A stretch of DNA of 64,000 nt from a candidate division CPR2 bacterium GW2011_GWC2_39_35 (lineage in GTDB: Bacteria; Patescibacteriota; CPR2), in NCBI GenBank assembly GCA_000995065.1, contig LBWX01000002.1, forward strand, positions 62,586-126,585, read 5' to 3'. Shown piece after piece: positions 43,048 to 60,678 of the stretch (positions within the stretch are counted from its first letter, which is position 1; each line of letters starts with the position of its first letter). The notes under the pieces were generated by a model, which made no database searches, had not been told where the DNA came from, and saw nothing but the letters and a program-made list of their open reading frames with translations. The translations under genes were made by a program, and so were the position numbers.

Positions 43048-44133
43048 GTGTCTCTAAAAGCAATAGCCTTACAAAATTATAGAACCTATGCCAAAGCTTC
43101 TGCCGAACTTAGCGGCATTAATGTTCTAATTGGCGCCAATACTCAGGGGAAAACCAATTTTTTAGAAGCTATTTCGTATCTTACCTTTGGCAAATCTTTT
43201 CGTTCTTCGGATCGGGATCTTATAAAATGGGGCGAGGATTTCTTTAGGATTGAAGCCACAACTTCCGAAAATAAGAAAATCGAAGTTTTTTATAGTTTGA
43301 ATCCTCAAAAAAAGATGGTTAGGATTGATAATCAGGCGAAGAAACAGTCCGAATTATTCGGCCACAATTTGGCCGTTCTTTTTAGTCCGGAAGACATTAA
43401 TCTAATAGCAGCGCCACCGGAGAAGAAAAGGCGTTATTTAGATATGATAATATCTCAGGTTGATAAGCTATACTTAGTGGATCTGATTAGCTATAAAAAA
43501 ATATTAAAACAGAGGAATTCGCTTCTTCTAAGAATTAGAGAAGGAAGCGGCGGCACAAAGGAACTAGAGGTGTGGTCGGAAAAACTAGTTGAAAGAGGCT
43601 TGCCACTTATACAAAAACGCCATGAATTTTTTATAGATTTCGAAGAGGATTTAAAAAAAGCTTATAGAAATTTTGGGGAGCAAGATTTGTGGCTAAAGTT
43701 TGTAAGCAGCACTCCAAATTCCAAAGAAGGTTTTGAAGCAGCGCTTAAAAAGGCGGAGGCGACAGACATTGTTAGCGCTAAAACCTCTCTGGGGCCTCAC
43801 AGAGACGATTTTGTATTTTATCTGGAAGATAAGGAGATAGAAAGCATTGGATCCAGAGGAGAGTTCAGAAGTGCCGTTTTAGCCCTAAAGCTAGCAGAGA
43901 TTAAGTATCTCGAAAAAAAGACCGGCAAAAAAGCAATATTTCTCCTGGATGATGTTTTCTCGGAGCTGGATGAATCTAGGAGGGATGCGTTGTATAATCT
44001 GATAGGAGATTACCAGACCATTATTACAAGCACGGACTTAGATCATTTAAGTGAGGAGCTTCTAAAAAAAGCAGCAATATTTAAAATAGAGAATTACGAG
44101 ATAATTAATCAGGAAATAGGAAATAGGAAATAG
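43048..44133 (+). CDS. recF: DNA replication/repair protein RecF
   Basis: Walker A (GANTQGKTNFLEAI) in an SMC-like ABC ATPase of 361 aa. Confidence 0.9.
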   Translation: MSLKAIALQNYRTYAKASAELSGINVLIGANTQGKTNFLEAISYLTFGKSFRSSDRDLIKWGEDFFRIEATTSENKKIEVFYSLNPQKKMVRIDNQAKKQSELFGHNLAVLFSPEDINLIAAPPEKKRRYLDMIISQVDKLYLVDLISYKKILKQRNSLLLRIREGSGGTKELEVWSEKLVERGLPLIQKRHEFFIDFEEDLKKAYRNFGEQDLWLKFVSSTPNSKEGFEAALKKAEATDIVSAKTSLGPHRDDFVFYLEDKEIESIGSRGEFRSAVLALKLAEIKYLEKKTGKKAIFLLDDVFSELDESRRDALYNLIGDYQTIITSTDLDHLSEELLKKAAIFKIENYEIINQEIGNRK

Positions 44134-44147
44134 GAAATAGGAAATCA
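44110..44147. repeat. (AGGAAAT)4 heptanucleotide tandem repeat at the recF 3' end
   Basis: AGGAAATAGGAAATAGGAAATAGGAAAT encodes the final EIGNRK residues of RecF and extends past the stop. Confidence 0.7.
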
Positions 44148-44254
44148 AATTGTAACTGCTCACTATCGGTCATTGCGAGCGACCCAAAGGAGCGTGGCAA
44201 TCTTGTTTCGAACATAAAGGGATTGCTTCGTTCCTGCAATGACTAATGGGGTTG
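44142..44254. repeat. GTCATTGCGAG...CTGCAATGAC-family structured inverted-repeat element (copy A)
   Basis: An outer 12-bp stem (GTAACTGCTCAC/GTGAGCAGTTAC), inner GTCATTGCGAG/CCTGCAATGAC arms and an internal GCAATC/GATTGC pair. Confidence 0.6.
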
Positions 44255-44264
44255 TGAGCAGTTA

Positions 44265-44300
44265 CATCAAATTTTCTCCCTCTCCTCTTTAGGAGAGGGA
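44265..44300. repeat. CCCTCTCCT/AGGAGAGGG hairpin followed by TGGGGCGAGG (copy A)
   Basis: A perfect 9-bp stem upstream of the DUF721 gene. A homolog lies at 61110-61155. Confidence 0.5.
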
Positions 44301-48708: not shown

Positions 48709-49185
48709 GTCAAAACAGTATCTCTCTAAATCCAAATGTCAAAGCTCAAATTTCAAATGAATGTCAAATGCTTAAATATTAAAACTAGCTGTTCCTTATA
48801 ATGCTTGAAAATATTAAAATTAATTCTTGTGCTTCTTTCCATAAATTCCGAGATTGTTCTTTTAGATTAGGATTGGCTACCTGAATCATTCTTAACCAAT
48901 GTTTGGTCTCTTTAGCTTCTTTTTTGCAAATACTTATCTTGTGTTTAAACTCTTTTTTAGACTCTGCCCCATCGGCTTCACAGTAATTGGCCCCAATGCT
49001 AGTTGCTGATCTAACTACCTGAGAGATTAAAGGCAGTGATATTGGGTCTTTTGACATTAAACGAGCAAATCTAATTATATCTTCTCCGAATAAGGCTGTT
49101 CTTTCTTCTAGATCATATTTGGCATTAGTGCTTTGGATTTGATTTGACATTTGTAATTTGGATTTTGACATTAAATTTTTTTAGC
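48709..49185. mobile_element. small element carrying the four-helix-bundle gene between terminal inverted repeats rich in CAAATGTCAAA/TTTGACATTTG
   Basis: The left arm (48709-48775) is the inverted complement of the right arm (49124-49185). Gene-less derivatives lie at 49953-50091, 57558-57740 and 58505-58697. Confidence 0.6.
48785..49171 (-). CDS. four-helix-bundle protein (the TIGR02436-like family encoded in 23S rRNA intervening sequences)
   Basis: FGEDIIRFARLM...SIGANYCEADGAESKKEFKHKISICKKEAKETKHWLRM is the hallmark of this family. Confidence 0.75.
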   Translation of the reverse strand: MSKSKLQMSNQIQSTNAKYDLEERTALFGEDIIRFARLMSKDPISLPLISQVVRSATSIGANYCEADGAESKKEFKHKISICKKEAKETKHWLRMIQVANPNLKEQSRNLWKEAQELILIFSSIIRNS

Positions 49186-49952: not shown

Positions 49953-50091
49953 AAATCCAAAACAGTATCTCTCTAAATCCAAATGTCAAAGCTCAAATTT
50001 CAAATGAATGTCAAATGCTTAAGTGCTTAATTTTTTTAACATTAGTGCTTTGGATTTGATTTGACATTTGTAATTTGGGTTTTGACATTAA
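49953..50091. repeat. gene-less MITE-like derivative of the four-helix-bundle element
   Basis: The first ~65 nt are identical to 48712-48775. The right arm retains the first ~17 codons of the 4HB gene (MSKPKLQMSNQIQSTNV) followed by a stop. Confidence 0.65.
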
Positions 50092-53301: not shown

Positions 53302-53462
53302 TGAATAATGAGATATTTAAAGGCTTTAGCCTTACTGTTTTCCTTTTTATGTCAACGAGCATCTCTCGTGGGATTAGTATGACAACAATAGCATATTATA
53401 TCTAATATGTCAAGGGTTTTGTGCTGACCCACGTGCGCTTTTTCTAAAAACGTTTTTGAGGC

Positions 53463-53531
53463 GTCATTGCGAATGAAATGAAGCAATCTCATTCGTCTCA
53501 TGGCAGGATCGCCACGCTTCGCTCGCAATGA
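53463..53531. repeat. GTCATTGCGA...CTCGCAATGAC structured inverted-repeat element (copy B)
   Basis: GTCATTGCGAATGAAATGAAGCAATCTCATTCG...CGCTCGCAATGAC. Confidence 0.6.
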
Positions 53532-53653
53532 CCATTACGGGTTTATCTAAAAAGTGAGTGCTTCAGAGATTTATTCCGATATCATAAATACTTAAACCAA
53601 ATAAAAAAACCTCCAGATTCACTGAAGGTTTTTTGTGATTTTATTCTCAGCTA

Positions 53654-54087: not shown

Positions 54088-55407
54088 TTATAATCCCGGT
54101 AAGTTGTAGTTAAAGAAATTAGCCAAAAATAGGATAGCGGCTTTAGCAACTAATATTATTATGAGACCCACTACGGCCGCTGTCAACCCACTTTTAGCCG
54201 CCATAATTGAGTCCATATTGCCGGCAGACGTTACCATTCTGATGCCGCCAAGCAGTATAAAAATAATAGCCACAATAGCCGCAATGCTTAAAAGAAACTG
54301 GGTCAAGGTAATAATAAGCACTGTTACCTTGTTTAAGGTCGGTACCTCGTCGCATCCCAAAAAGCCAATTATGCTCTTTTTATTCTGGTCGAGCGAGCAT
54401 TCGAACTCAGGCTTTTCGGTCAGTGGCTTAGATATCTCATGATTGAAGGTAGCGTCTTTTGAGAACAGATTCCCCCATTCACTAATAACGTTACTCGTGC
54501 CTTGTAATTGCTCTACTTTTTGTTCATCGGTAAGTGCAGGGTTGCTTATGATTTTCTGAGCCTCGTCTAATTTATTTTTTAGGCCTATAGTTTCCTTATC
54601 TATCTTTTCTTTATCATAAAATAAGCTGCAGTTATTTTGGAATCCCGTAATCGCTTTATTCGCTTCTTCAATTGTAAACTCAGTAAAATCTAAGGTACCG
54701 CCCTTTATTAAGGCGTCTAGTTGGCTAGTTTGCTTTTTGATTTCGTCTAAATAGTAGCCTGTGCATTGAGTATATTGGTCATATATGGATTGTTTTGTTT
54801 TCGGTGCCGCCCATCCTTTTATTTTATAGGGAGGCGTTTTAGATGTTAAGCCTGTGATAGTAGTTCCTCCGTCTATCTTCTTTTCAATGTCATCAGGGAG
54901 ATTTTGGTTTTTGTAGTTATAGACGGGTATATTATTTTTACTACCATTCCTGCTAAGAGTAACCGCTAAACTACCGTCATTTTTTATAAAGAGATAGAAG
55001 TTTTCTTTGGTAGGAGCGTACATTTTGTATAAATAGCCATGCGTGTCATTACTATCTATATACCAGTCGATAAAAATTCCGTCTTCAGCGGTATTGCTGT
55101 AGTTGCCTTTTTCAGTCCCATTTTCGCCCAAATAAGCAAATTTTATCTCATAGTTTTTATCGTCGACCGTAGTAAATGTAATTCCAGCAATTCCTGATCC
55201 GCTTTTATCTGATGCTTTTCCCTCTGAAAAGCTCAATTTAGTTTTAGTATTTCCTAACATAGAACTATAATCTTCTACGCTAGGAGAGGCAAACAGTATA
55301 CCTGGTGTTAATATTAGAAAGGATAAGGTGAGTAAGATTAATGGTAGAAGTTTATTCATGCTTGTAGCTACTTTTTTTGATTTTGAGACGCTGCTGCTCT
55401 GTGACAT
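54088..55407 (-). CDS. surface protein with a C-terminal VirB2/TrbC-like pilin domain
   Basis: A ~330-aa extracellular N-terminus plus a C-terminus (GGIRMVTSAGNMDSIMAAKSGL...) paralogous to 53654..54052. Confidence 0.55.
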   Translation of the reverse strand: MSQSSSVSKSKKVATSMNKLLPLILLTLSFLILTPGILFASPSVEDYSSMLGNTKTKLSFSEGKASDKSGSGIAGITFTTVDDKNYEIKFAYLGENGTEKGNYSNTAEDGIFIDWYIDSNDTHGYLYKMYAPTKENFYLFIKNDGSLAVTLSRNGSKNNIPVYNYKNQNLPDDIEKKIDGGTTITGLTSKTPPYKIKGWAAPKTKQSIYDQYTQCTGYYLDEIKKQTSQLDALIKGGTLDFTEFTIEEANKAITGFQNNCSLFYDKEKIDKETIGLKNKLDEAQKIISNPALTDEQKVEQLQGTSNVISEWGNLFSKDATFNHEISKPLTEKPEFECSLDQNKKSIIGFLGCDEVPTLNKVTVLIITLTQFLLSIAAIVAIIFILLGGIRMVTSAGNMDSIMAAKSGLTAAVVGLIIILVAKAAILFLANFFNYNLPGL

Positions 55408-55408
55408 T

Positions 55409-56737
55409 TTACCCTCCGAACCAATTTAAGCCCACCGTATTAAATATTACTTTAGCGAGCAGAAGAACGGCCATACTGGTAATGGCGCCGAGTATCCAGG
55501 ATTTGGCATTCGAGATAGAGTCCGGGTTGCCGCCGCTAGTCATGTATAAAAAGCCGCCAAAAGTGGTAATAAGAATAGTTAAGAGGAAGCCGGCAAAAAG
55601 ACCCCAGTTGAAAACTTTATTGGTATAATCAGTAATAGCGTTTTTGCCGCTAAAACAGCCGAATAAGGTCTCAACGCCATCACACCCGGGCTTCTTATTA
55701 TCCTTGGCCGCGTTATTTTTGCACTCGGTTGCTCTTTCCTTCCATTCGCTTTCGCTTTTTGGAGCACCTTCTTTGTATATGCAATCGCAAATATCGGAAT
55801 AACCCCTTGTGGCACACTCATTCTGCCTCGATTCATTAAGTCTGCCAAGTGAGTCTTGTTCGGCTTGATTGGCCCTATCTAGCTTGTAGTAAGCATTTAA
55901 TACGGCCTTTAGATTATCGGATTCCCGTATCGGAATAACATTTGTTGACCCATTACTATTACAAAGGAGAGAAGCATTCTTGAAATTGTAGGAAGTTTGG
56001 TCGGTTCCCGCTGACCAGGGGCTCTGAATATCTATGGTGTCTCCTTTGGCCGAATTAAAGCTCCAGTCTCTGGTAACGAATAATATTGGTTTTCCGTTTT
56101 GTCTGGCATTCATATTATCTTTTATCTCGGCGTTTGTTTCTGCAGTTGTTGCTTCTCTTAAACCCTCTTTCATTTTAAAAACTTCGCCGTTATCGCTTGT
56201 AATTTGGATATCCGAAGGATTCAGAGCCAAATCCCATGAAAAAGTATCGCCACTATTGTAGCAAGACTTCTTAACATCATTCTTTGGTGCTAATAATGTT
56301 ATGGTCTGAATTGCTTGATCTGACCATCCGCCAATACTGCTAAAAGTATAGTGATATATTCTAGCACTAGCATTTGTGGTTAAATTCATAGCGGAGGGAA
56401 GATTAGACGATTGAAATTCGATATAATAAACATGCATCACATCGAAACTAAGCCTTTTTTCCCAATATTCATATCGGTAATAAGCGTTAGCGCTCAAACC
56501 GCCAGAAGCTACGTTCGGTCCTTTCATGCCCCCGATATCATTATTGACGGTCAAACTGTTTCCGAGCTCATCAAAGAGAAATGTTCCCAAGGGTCCGGTT
56601 ATTGTTTCGTAGTCATCGCTTAGTTGGTAGTTATCGGAGGCTTGAGCAGATGACAAAAAAAGGGGGGAGAATAATGCGATAGTTGCAATAAGTAAGGACG
56701 TTATTAGAGTTTTAATTAGTTTGGCGACGATACTCAT
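55409..56737 (-). CDS. surface protein with a C-terminal VirB2/TrbC-like pilin domain
   Basis: A signal peptide, a Cys-containing extracellular domain and a C-terminus (GGFLYMTSGGNPDSISNAKSWIL...) of the same pilin-like type. Confidence 0.55.
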   Translation of the reverse strand: MSIVAKLIKTLITSLLIATIALFSPLFLSSAQASDNYQLSDDYETITGPLGTFLFDELGNSLTVNNDIGGMKGPNVASGGLSANAYYRYEYWEKRLSFDVMHVYYIEFQSSNLPSAMNLTTNASARIYHYTFSSIGGWSDQAIQTITLLAPKNDVKKSCYNSGDTFSWDLALNPSDIQITSDNGEVFKMKEGLREATTAETNAEIKDNMNARQNGKPILFVTRDWSFNSAKGDTIDIQSPWSAGTDQTSYNFKNASLLCNSNGSTNVIPIRESDNLKAVLNAYYKLDRANQAEQDSLGRLNESRQNECATRGYSDICDCIYKEGAPKSESEWKERATECKNNAAKDNKKPGCDGVETLFGCFSGKNAITDYTNKVFNWGLFAGFLLTILITTFGGFLYMTSGGNPDSISNAKSWILGAITSMAVLLLAKVIFNTVGLNWFGG

Positions 56738-57557: not shown

Positions 57558-57740
57558 ATTAAAATCCAAATGCCAAAGTTCAAATTCCAAATGAATGACC
57601 AATGACTAAATTTTAAATTTTTAAGCATTGAGAATTAGGCCTTCGGATCTGAGGTCTTCGACCGTGAGGCTCAGACCGAATCGGCTCAGGCTCGAAGAGG
57701 CTTAATTTGGCATTTGGAATTTGAGCTTTGACATTTATAT
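57558..57740. repeat. MITE-like element related to the 4HB-element arms, with a GC-rich structured core
   Basis: AATCCAAATGCCAAAGTTCAAATTCCAAATGAATG and its inverse AATTTGGCATTTGGAATTTGAGCTTTGACATTT flank a GC-rich hairpin at 57640-57700. Confidence 0.55.
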
Positions 57741-58504: not shown

Positions 58505-58697
58505 GGTTAATGTCAAATGACAAAATCCAAATTTCAAATGAATATTAAATGAATTAATGTCAAATAATTACAATCTCCTTATTCTTTTAAATAAATCTAA
58601 AAAGAGTTTCATGTTTTGACCATTCATATTTTTGTATTACTTAAGATTTGGAAATTAGAATTTGATTTGATATTTGACATTTGAGCTTTGACATTAA
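58505..58697. repeat. MITE-like element related to the 4HB-element arms
   Basis: AATGTCAAATGACAAAATCCAAATTTCAAATGAATATTAAATG...TTGATTTGATATTTGACATTTGAGCTTTGACATT. Confidence 0.55.
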
Positions 58698-60367: not shown

Positions 60368-60469
60368 GTCGAAAAGTCTTATATTCTGATTGAAAATTGT
60401 TATTTTTCGGGTTATAATCATTGAGTAATTTTAAAAGATCATGCATTTCGCGTTTTAACTGCCAACACA

Positions 60470-60555
60470 GTCATTGCGAGGAAGCTCTGTTATGAAGCAA
60501 TCTCATTTGCGTGCAGAAAAGGATTGCCGCGTTCCCTCTGGTCGCTCGCAATGAC
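60470..60555. repeat. GTCATTGCGAG...CTCGCAATGAC structured inverted-repeat element (copy C)
   Basis: A perfect 11-bp terminal inverted repeat enclosing GAAGCAATC...GGATTGCC. Confidence 0.6.
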
Positions 60556-60588
60556 AAAGTGCGAAATGCGTGAAGATACTGGATTTTT

Positions 60589-60678
60589 GGAAGGGTGGCA
60601 GAGCGGACGAATGCGGCAGTCTTGAAAACTGTTGAACTCGCAAGGGTTCCGTGGGTTCGAATCCCACCCCTTCCGCCA
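60589..60678 (+). tRNA. tRNA-Ser (anticodon TGA)
   Basis: GGAAGGGTGGCAGAGCGG...CTTGAAA...GGGTTCGAATCCCACCCCTTCCGCCA, with a long variable arm and TGA in the anticodon loop. Confidence 0.8.

Follow-up and report, generated by a model that had tools for sequence, protein, structure and literature searches.

REP/REPIN-RAYT systems, reportedly described by Nunvar in 2010 and by Bertels and Rainey in 2011, combine repetitive extragenic palindromes (REPs) bearing a GTAG tag with a transposase of the HUH/Y1 type, and the Correia elements of Neisseria, which are accompanied by TA target duplications, are thought to derive from DDE-type elements. Two other described systems lie closer to the subject of this study, a short palindromic element present in three copies (c1, c2 and c3) in a stretch of 64,000 nucleotides (nt), hereafter the window, from contig LBWX01000002.1 (positions 62,586 to 126,585, forward strand) of the candidate division CPR2 bacterium GW2011_GWC2_39_35 (GCA_000995065.1). 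The first comprises the CGTC-tagged REPs (Di Nocera, De Gregorio & Rocco 2013, BMC Genomics 14:522, PMC3733652), which have an unpaired CGTC tag (or TGTC or CCTC), a stem starting with AT and a CCA tail, and occur mostly as head-to-head dimers. Alpha-proteobacteria are their main hosts, and dRS3 of Neisseria and RPE-4 and RPE-6 of Rickettsia are members; no associated transposase or partner enzyme was found, nor any RAYT flanked by CGTC repeats (PMC3733652).

The second system comprises the NTS repeat (CGTCATTCCCGCGMAVGCGGGAATCYRG) and related SRMs, which flank ssnA, a gene for a single-domain GIY-YIG protein of 94 residues (cd10448; Chenal et al. 2025, Nat Commun, PMC11893778). SsnA and three homologues were demonstrated in vitro to bind the hairpin only as single-stranded DNA (ssDNA) and to cut a few nt upstream of it, and no activity of N. 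meningitidis SsnA was detected on double-stranded DNA or RNA. For Ssn, the critical bases are the three that precede the palindrome and the C that follows it. SRMs lie near 71% of the Ssn homologues and on both sides of 42%, and the NTS-ssnA-NTS layout resembles an insertion sequence. The NTS copies of Neisseria are concentrated near certain genes, and SsnA reduces transformation when the DNA carries NTS (PMC11893778).

We found that the family of c1-c3 has the same tag, the same C, the same tail and the same gene layout, and that its full-length form carries a small GIY-YIG nuclease gene; on these grounds we place the three copies in the superfamily of CGTC-tagged REPs and SRMs. Our explanation as a whole, to which we give a probability of roughly 0.7, is that c1-c3 are gene-less inverted dimers of an ATTGC-stem subfamily, that their mechanism would be analogous to that of SsnA, and that they are old, decaying insertions.

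Three copies of a widespread repeat family

Copy c1 occupies 44169-44243 on the plus strand (left arm 44169-44202, loop 44203-44220, right arm 44221-44243), c2 occupies 53463-53532 on the minus strand (arms 53463-53488 and 53507-53532, loop 53489-53506), and c3, to which no strand is assigned, occupies 60470-60555 (arms 60470-60502 and 60522-60555, loop 60503-60521). An initial annotation of the window had recognized these three copies and had located them correctly after recF, between genes of a type IV secretion system (T4SS) and upstream of a tRNA-Ser. It gave their length as 70-110 nt, whereas the actual sizes are 70-86 nt. For the first copy it gave 44142-44254: an element is indeed there, but the start was set 27 nt too early, within a heptamer repeat at the 3' end of recF, and the end is the first base of the right arm of an outer repeat. 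The copies are GC-rich, as had been noticed, with a GC content of 0.48-0.51 compared with ~0.37-0.44 in the DNA around them.

The three copies are a genuine repeat family. The arm 11-mer GTCATTGCGAG occurs six times in the window with no more than one mismatch, against 0.47 occurrences expected, and none of 100 shuffles reached six; five of the six occurrences are arms of c1-c3. A covariance model, R1, which was trained on 70 copies from other organisms and included no window sequence, retrieved exactly c1, c2 and c3 from the window (E values, best first, 1.9e-10, 9e-10 and 2.5e-9), the next match having an E of ~8. R1 aligned to c1 at 44166-44246(+) with 48.8 bits (the best E value) and to c2 at 53460-53535(-) with 44.4 bits (E 2.5e-9), and matched c3 on both strands with 46.1 and 44.2 bits. 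Chance palindromes, which the annotation had entertained as a reason to discard the family, were rejected on the basis of the 11-mer counts and these E values. The same scan, which it had recommended, detected no further copies within the 64 kb, and the family outside proved to be enormous.

Oriented alike, c1-c3 follow the consensus GTCATTGCGAG ... (A/G)CG(T/C)GGCAATC ... loop ... GATTGCTTC ... CTCGCAATGAC. The 11-bp terminal repeats reported earlier are enriched in the window, as shown above, but are exact on both sides in c3 only: the right arm of c1 is degenerate through a one-base deletion (CCTGCAATGAC), and the left arm of c2 has one mismatch (GCGAA in place of GCGAG). The inner pairing reported earlier reads GTGGCAATC/GATTGC in c1 and GAAGCAATC/GATTGC in c3, and in c2 it reads GAAGCAATC/GATCGC, one inner motif there being GCGATC through a substitution. 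The six arm tags are GGTCAT, AGTCAT, CGTCAT, GGTCAT, AGTCAT and TGTCAT, those of c1 being GGTC (left arm) and AGTC (right arm); four of the six fit the H of the published SRM motif, and a C follows GCAAT or GCGAT in every arm.

To survey the family, we searched IMG/VR contigs and the genome contigs of GTDB species representatives for the exact pattern GTCATTGCGAG-N40-70-CTCGCAATGAC, which was present in at least 120 contigs of each collection and in many phyla, a very wide distribution that the annotation had overlooked. Hosts among the matches listed include many Bradyrhizobium, sphingomonads, Bacteroidota (Pedobacter, Mucilaginibacter and Flavobacterium), Chloroflexi, Planctomycetota and cyanobacteria (Microcoleus), together with Rickettsiales, Coxiellaceae, delta-proteobacteria, Patescibacteria and Berkelbacteria. 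Foreign copies are 64-102 nt long, with a mode at 80-84 nt. Solo copies in genome contigs have no conserved neighbour, no neighbour cluster exceeding four loci, and the neighbours that recur in IMG/VR are structural genes of phages or gene transfer agents (GTAs), such as those for terminase, portal, head-tail connector and tail proteins, because of the make-up of that collection. In several of these loci (L010, L014, L026, L041, L055 and L083), ATTGC-type dimers sit in short spacers of phage- or GTA-like structural modules, beside terminase, portal, head-tail connector and tail-completion genes. In a full-text search of the literature, GTCATTGCGAG and six variants of greater length gave nothing but matches to unrelated primers.

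Each arm has the plan (C/T)GTC-ATTGC-GAG, a variable spacer, which frequently folds into a small covarying helix, and (C)G(AA or YG)-GCAAT-C(C/T), and a short loop separates the two opposed arms; the inverted repeat reaches one or two bases past the 11-mer. Among 141 family copies, the base at -1 is C or T in 135 (C in 91, T in 44) and, followed by GTCAT, gives a CGTC or TGTC tag, and A stands there in four. The base at +1 is G or A in 138 copies. The 3' consensus GCAAT-C-C-A-G provides the C after the palindrome and a CCAG tail. The 5-bp stem is accompanied by an internal loop (GA/GAA) and by a second helix that varies, and the ATTGC/GCAAT pairing is invariant in the sample because the sample was selected by that stem. 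The spacer lengths peak at 9, 15 and 7 nt. In the 15-nt class, a helix within the arm covaries (GGAGC/GCGAC, GGAAC/GTGAC, GGAAT/ATGAC, GGCAC/GTGCC and GGGAC/GTCCC), often with central tandem G·A pairs; its covariation score was 0.160, compared with 0.049 in shuffles, of which 0 of 500 reached that value, and slid controls were lower.

All three window copies and the 256 unique foreign copies are inverted dimers, which is partly by design of the search pattern. The two arms of a dimer usually differ, with identical spacers in only 27 of 213 dimers, and the inner-motif variants AA and YG combine in nearly random assortment (121/66/13). A strict long hairpin as the sole fold was rejected on account of both figures and of private hairpins in some arms. 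Whole dimers fold better than shuffles as DNA, with z scores of -2 to -3.9. One ATTGC-type element (L053, 8930-9091) has a loop made of four tandem copies and a partial fifth copy of a 16-nt unit, CCAGACTGCTTATGGC.

In several respects the ATTGC family agrees with the CGTC-tagged REPs, which we compared by description only, the ATTGC-type arm sequence being absent from the text and supplements of PMC3733652. The CGTC/TGTC tag, the AT at the start of the stem and a CCA-like tail of 3 nt are common to both, as are the predominance of inverted dimers, often heterodimers, the intergenic location and the presence of some copies within longer palindromes. Both have Bradyrhizobium and sphingomonads among their major hosts, and for neither group was a transposase found. 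The two differ in that the described families have a stem of 8-9 bp and a loop of 4-5 nt, whereas the ATTGC family has a 5-bp stem and spacers of 7, 9 or 15 nt. The annotation had offered "REP-like element" as one of its suggestions, and the tag, stem, tail and inverted dimers of the CGTC-tagged REP superfamily bear this out.

A GIY-YIG gene between the arms

One foreign locus (L111) contains, in the loop of an element, a GIY-YIG gene (PF01541) of 98 codons, with solo copies on either side. It is the only GIY-YIG gene in ~2.1 Mb of family loci, and its protein has at least 7995 homologues. We then considered 80 metagenomic loci, picked by the protein alone. An arm 11-mer with up to two mismatches lay within 150 nt of the GIY-YIG gene in 73 of the 80, whereas our own chance estimate is ~8%, and GTCATTGCGAG upstream was accompanied by CTCGCAATGAC downstream in 43. 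ATTGC-type arms are thus associated with the GIY-YIG gene. In 23 clean arm-ORF-arm units, the open reading frame (ORF) exactly fills the loop: YGTCATTGCGAG-GNAC-GAAGCAATCT is followed after 10-30 nt by the ATG, and the stop codon (TAG or TGA) overlaps AGATTGCTTCG-TNCC-TCGCAATGAC. The gene of the full-length unit has ~300 nt and encodes a single-domain GIY-YIG protein of ~98 residues (range 97-101) with no other domain. The spacings between the two tyrosines (11 residues) and between tyrosine and glutamate (47-48 residues) in these partner proteins are as in the SsnA mutants Y6, Y17 and E64 (PMC11893778). Called N-terminal extensions of GIY-YIG homologues translate the arm, for example into GHCEARSNL or VIARRYDEAI. 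At five nuclease genes (L256, L263, L266, L302 and L304), tandem arrays of three to four half arms, CTCGCAATGAC or GTCATTGCGAG every 20-45 nt, adjoin the gene, and such arrays may have been left by repeated events at the ends of the element.

A profile search of IMG/VR with the alignment of these GIY-YIG proteins yielded two loci, one of them once more the L111 contig and the other a phage YhbQ-like gene that has no arms. A search of NCBIfam and PDB for a named Ssn family or structure gave only weak matches, to a group I intron endonuclease model and to UPF0213 BH0048 (1zg2). A literature search for links between GIY-YIG and palindromic repeats, MITEs or terminal inverted repeats returned only organellar and eukaryotic papers, and one for COG2827, UPF0213 or YhbQ nothing relevant.

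The ATTGC family also resembles the SRMs. The 5' tag HGTCWY is represented by CGTCAT, the palindrome starts with AT, a C stands right after it, and the tail is of a CYNB type that fits RNCYNB. In both, the units flank a gene for a GIY-YIG protein of ~94-100 residues, and the share of genes with arms on at least one side (73/80) and on both sides (43/80) can be compared with the published 71% and 42% (PMC11893778). In both, too, many gene-less copies are dispersed between genes in many phyla. The ATTGC subfamily differs in having an ATTGC...GCAAT stem with a long, partly structured spacer instead of an 8-bp C/G-rich stem with a 4-nt loop. Canonical SRMs share contigs with ATTGC-type copies (57 in ~2 Mb), and the relative from the candidate phyla radiation (CPR) discussed below has one canonical SRM, counted once each in L327, L328 and L329, which are three copies of one place. 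The ATTGC arm misses the published SRM pattern because it fails at the YY stem positions, and the ATTGC-stem repeats appear to be a large Ssn/SRM subfamily that this search pattern has missed.

What lies between the arms also bears on two transposase-based readings. If the copies were REPINs moved by a RAYT, that is, by a Y1, IS200-like transposase, one would expect the features that they share with those systems: a tagged palindromic unit in inverted doublets, a single small flanked gene, a presumed action on ssDNA hairpins and no target-site duplication. However, the tag is CGTC/TGTC and not GTAG, the gene between the arms encodes a GIY-YIG nuclease and not a Y1 transposase, and CGTC repeats were not found to flank any RAYT (PMC3733652), so that we regard this origin as very improbable. 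Slighter still is the chance that they are classical miniature inverted-repeat transposable elements (MITEs) derived from an insertion sequence with a DDE transposase. In keeping with such an origin, the copies have terminal inverted repeats of 11-25 bp, are small and occur as many dispersed copies, and they share with Correia elements the short, gene-less form and the intergenic dispersal; the TA duplication and DDE origin of the latter are not seen in the ATTGC family. No target-site duplication was seen when the flanks of c1, c2 and c3 were inspected directly, and among the 141 copies none of 1-8 nt exceeded chance, which settles in the negative the duplication check proposed with the annotation. 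A search for an autonomous form, as arms 130-3500 nt apart, gave four cases with no transposase inside: a loop of tandem repeats, a chance pair on either side of a tRNA, a non-coding insert of 856 nt and a sister element nested inside. The GIY-YIG gene is the only recurrent cargo. Of the earlier suggestion "MITE", what stands is that the copies are gene-less versions of a gene-bearing unit; the duplication and the DDE enzyme that the term implies do not, the partner being a GIY-YIG nuclease.

A gene-bearing unit is also present at the position of c1 in a relative. In the closest other species found (GCA_001872945.1, MNYC01000011.1; RecF 69% identical), the spacer between recF and dciA measures 800 nt and contains a 97-residue PF01541 gene, whose product is 52% identical to the Flavobacterium-type protein. 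The gene is preceded by GTCATCCCAGACTTGATCTGGGATCC and accompanied by sister-type dimers such as GTCATTCCCGACCTGATCGGGAATCC...GGAATGAC. In a relative further removed (RecF 61%), recF overlaps a dciA-like gene, which leaves no spacer. The same site was thus found in three states, without a spacer, with a gene-bearing spacer and, in the window, with a gene-less ATTGC-type dimer. Two sister arm types were noted at 1390-2135 of L327, the locus of GCA_001872945.1, namely GTCATTCCCGACCTGATCGGGAATCC... and GTCATCCCAGACTTGATCTGGGATCC...GGATTCCAAATCAAGTTTGGAATGAC, neither of which fits the published SRM pattern.

Proposed mechanism and points against it

By analogy with SsnA and its three homologues (PMC11893778), the cognate nuclease would bind the arm only when it is exposed as ssDNA, for example during replication, uptake or conjugation, and would then introduce a nick a few nt to the 5' side of the GTC tag. 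Given the inverted arms, the predicted cuts would fall just outside both ends of the unit, on opposite strands. Such an arrangement would allow the arm-gene-arm unit, along with gene-less derivatives of it, to be copied to new sites or, alternatively, would enable the host to cut incoming repeat-bearing ssDNA.

Several points weigh against this explanation. The published SRM pattern HGTCWYN(0-2)YYVSBRHN(0-5)WNVSBRGN(0-2)RNCYNB, which in a control matched NTS, has no match in the window and none on the canonical ATTGC-type arm. In contrast to NTS, for which a nearest-neighbour calculation gives a hairpin of -9 kcal/mol (z -5.5), the single-arm hairpin of the ATTGC subfamily is predicted to be weak (-2.7 kcal/mol, z ~0), and therefore recognition of an ssDNA hairpin is not assured for it. 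Membership of the partner proteins in the Ssn clade is suggested by PF01541, by their size and by the catalytic-residue spacing, placement in cd10448 and direct homology to SsnA being putative; enzyme activity is a prediction for the ATTGC subfamily, and its mechanism and mobility are argued by analogy with SsnA only. The window, part of a 513-kb scaffold, contains no GIY-YIG gene, which leaves relic status and use in trans as the two options. Finally, since the two lineages with an occupied recF-dciA spacer have different arm types, the site is compatible with either one old insertion or repeated insertions, and common descent is unsupported.

We read the window copies as decaying relics because of the missing nuclease gene, the deviant tags, the deletion in c1 and the substitutions in c2. 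In the tag, two of the six arms have G, a base excluded by the published motif, and two have A, which is permitted there but rare in the family (4/141). Two arms have mutations in conserved blocks; c1 has the deletion, and c2 has two substitutions in such blocks. The sequences of c1-c3 thus suggest old insertions undergoing decay.

A competing explanation is that an Ssn-type nuclease encoded elsewhere in the genome uses c1-c3 as maintained sites, cutting ssDNA and modulating DNA uptake or conjugative transfer, as proposed for the NTS/SsnA system of Neisseria. The clustering of NTS near particular genes and the lowered transformation by NTS-bearing DNA (PMC11893778) provide a precedent, the copies adjoin T4SS, pilin and pilB genes and the replication-gene cluster, and the close relative encodes a GIY-YIG protein of the same type. 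The sequence of c1 is identical in three independent assemblies, but these derive from one population, and the assemblies L122 and L124, being identical, are uninformative on strain polymorphism. With only three copies in 64 kb, moreover, proximity to such genes could be chance, and the absence of a nuclease gene from the window, the G or rare A tags in four of the six arms, the deletion in the c1 arm and the substitutions in both conserved blocks of c2 argue against maintenance. We therefore consider maintained sites a possibility but a doubtful one, and prefer to regard c1-c3 as old, decaying insertions.

A broader proposal, which we advance only tentatively, is that the arm-GIY-YIG-arm unit is an autonomous mobile element, a "REPtron"-like counterpart of RAYT/REPIN that inserts in hairpin loops exposed as ssDNA; gene-less dimers would have spread across phyla, including Patescibacteria, and into phage- or GTA-like regions, and the repeats could serve to cut incoming strands in genomes that rely on uptake. 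If this is true, the CGTC REP superfamily gains the dedicated enzyme that it was reported to lack, and Ssn biology extends past the published motif. The ATTGC subfamily also reaches Patescibacteria and IMG/VR contigs. These repeats are common in metagenome-assembled genomes, in which their translation produces spurious ORFs (with peptides such as ...LAMT and HCE..RSNL) and wrongly extended N termini of GIY-YIG proteins, and annotation gains from their recognition. Should the partner enzymes cut ssDNA at a new recognition sequence, they would be additions to the toolbox of site-specific ssDNA nucleases.

Hairpins, transcription signals and neighbouring genes

In gene order, c1 lies within dnaA-dnaN-recF-[c1]-dciA and begins 36 nt past the recF stop codon. 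A minus-strand T4SS cluster follows downstream, with VirB4/TraC, PrgI, TrbL_3, c2 and the T4SS pilins, and then a comF-like gene, pilB, c3 and a tRNA-Ser/Arg cluster. The relatives of the window by RecF are CPR bacteria, Peregrinibacteria or "bacterium CG2_30_37_16", and the window genome looks Patescibacteria-like and of groundwater origin.

Outer inverted repeats, which the annotation had also overlooked, enclose two of the copies. Around c1, a perfect 13-bp repeat pairs TGTAACTGCTCAC (44151-44163) with GTGAGCAGTTACA (44254-44266), and the region 44142-44270 folds at -55 kcal/mol (z -7.5) and is followed by a T-rich run at 44267-44277; this outer hairpin could plausibly be the recF terminator, with c1 in its loop. 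Around c3, an imperfect repeat joins 60439-60456 to 60556-60573 (15 of 18 positions, 83% complementary, with a 9-nt exact core). Exact inverted repeats of at least 8 nt in the flanks were found for 7.5% of 253 foreign copies, compared with 1.3% in mismatched-flank controls. We infer that c1 and c3 landed in the loops of pre-existing hairpins; some REP families are likewise found inside longer palindromes (PMC3733652). At L205 (2681-2843), the loop of an ATTGC-type element harbours a nested element that is NTS-like (GTCATTCCTGCGAAAGCAGGAATC...GCGGGAATGAC), and different subfamilies therefore insert into one another.

The positions relative to transcription signals bear on the remaining alternative, that the copies act in cis as RNA hairpins (terminators, mRNA stabilizers or RNase III sites) or form a discrete small RNA. 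REPs of E. coli are known to stabilize mRNAs (discussed in PMC3733652). As RNA, the dimers give better folds than shuffles do (z -2 to -4.1), c1 stands directly 3' of recF, and c3, which ends 33 nt before tRNA-Ser(tga) (start at 60589), is downstream of a good promoter-like site at 60390-60418 (TTGAAA-17-TATAAT, 11 of 12 matches) and hence probably falls in the tRNA-Ser leader. That site is stronger than the one just ahead of the tRNA gene, at 60551-60580, in which a weak -35-like ATGACA from the right end of c3 stands 18 nt from GATACT. On the other hand, no T-run follows the elements, and c2 lies between a terminator-like site (53634-53604(-)), which it is past, and a promoter-like site (53413-53385(-)), which it is ahead of. 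No Rfam family was matched at the gathering threshold, and at E values up to 10 only generic hairpin matches to miRNA models appeared. The near-random 121/66/13 assortment of the inner AA and YG variants is not that of compensating pairs, and the occurrence of the same sequence beside unrelated genes across phyla fits a mobile DNA element better than a locus-specific RNA. SsnA, in addition, is inactive on RNA and acts on ssDNA (PMC11893778). We judge an RNA function improbable, and the "small ncRNA" of the annotation is not upheld; any role of the copies as transcript hairpins or as a -35-like hexamer looks incidental to old insertions of a mobile repeat.

Further features were observed in the window. 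A heptamer tandem repeat, (GGAAATA) x4, at 44117-44146 runs across the recF 3' end and stop codon just before c1. A 23S_rRNA_IVP gene (PF05635), at 48785-49171 on the minus strand, is wedged between VirB4/TraC and TraC-like T4SS genes and is absent from both relatives that have the region (L327-L329 and L330/L331). A second, AT-rich palindromic family, with the arm AAATG(T/C)CAAAG(C/T)TCAAATT(T/C)CAAATG, is present at 48734-48759, 49981-50089, 57568-57736 and 58515-58696, with six arms at up to three mismatches in the window against none expected; at least two inverted pairs surround 58-117 nt, the pair 58515/58671 resembles a third, and one arm adjoins the 23S_rRNA_IVP-type gene. No exact match to this family was found in IMG/VR. 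Upstream of a T4SS pilin gene, two adjacent minus-strand ORFs of similar size (54088-55407 and 55409-56737) encode 439 and 442 residues, and the 439-residue product, which is unusually long for a pilin-like protein, has a C-terminal match to T4SS_pilin (PF18895) just under the Pfam cut-off.

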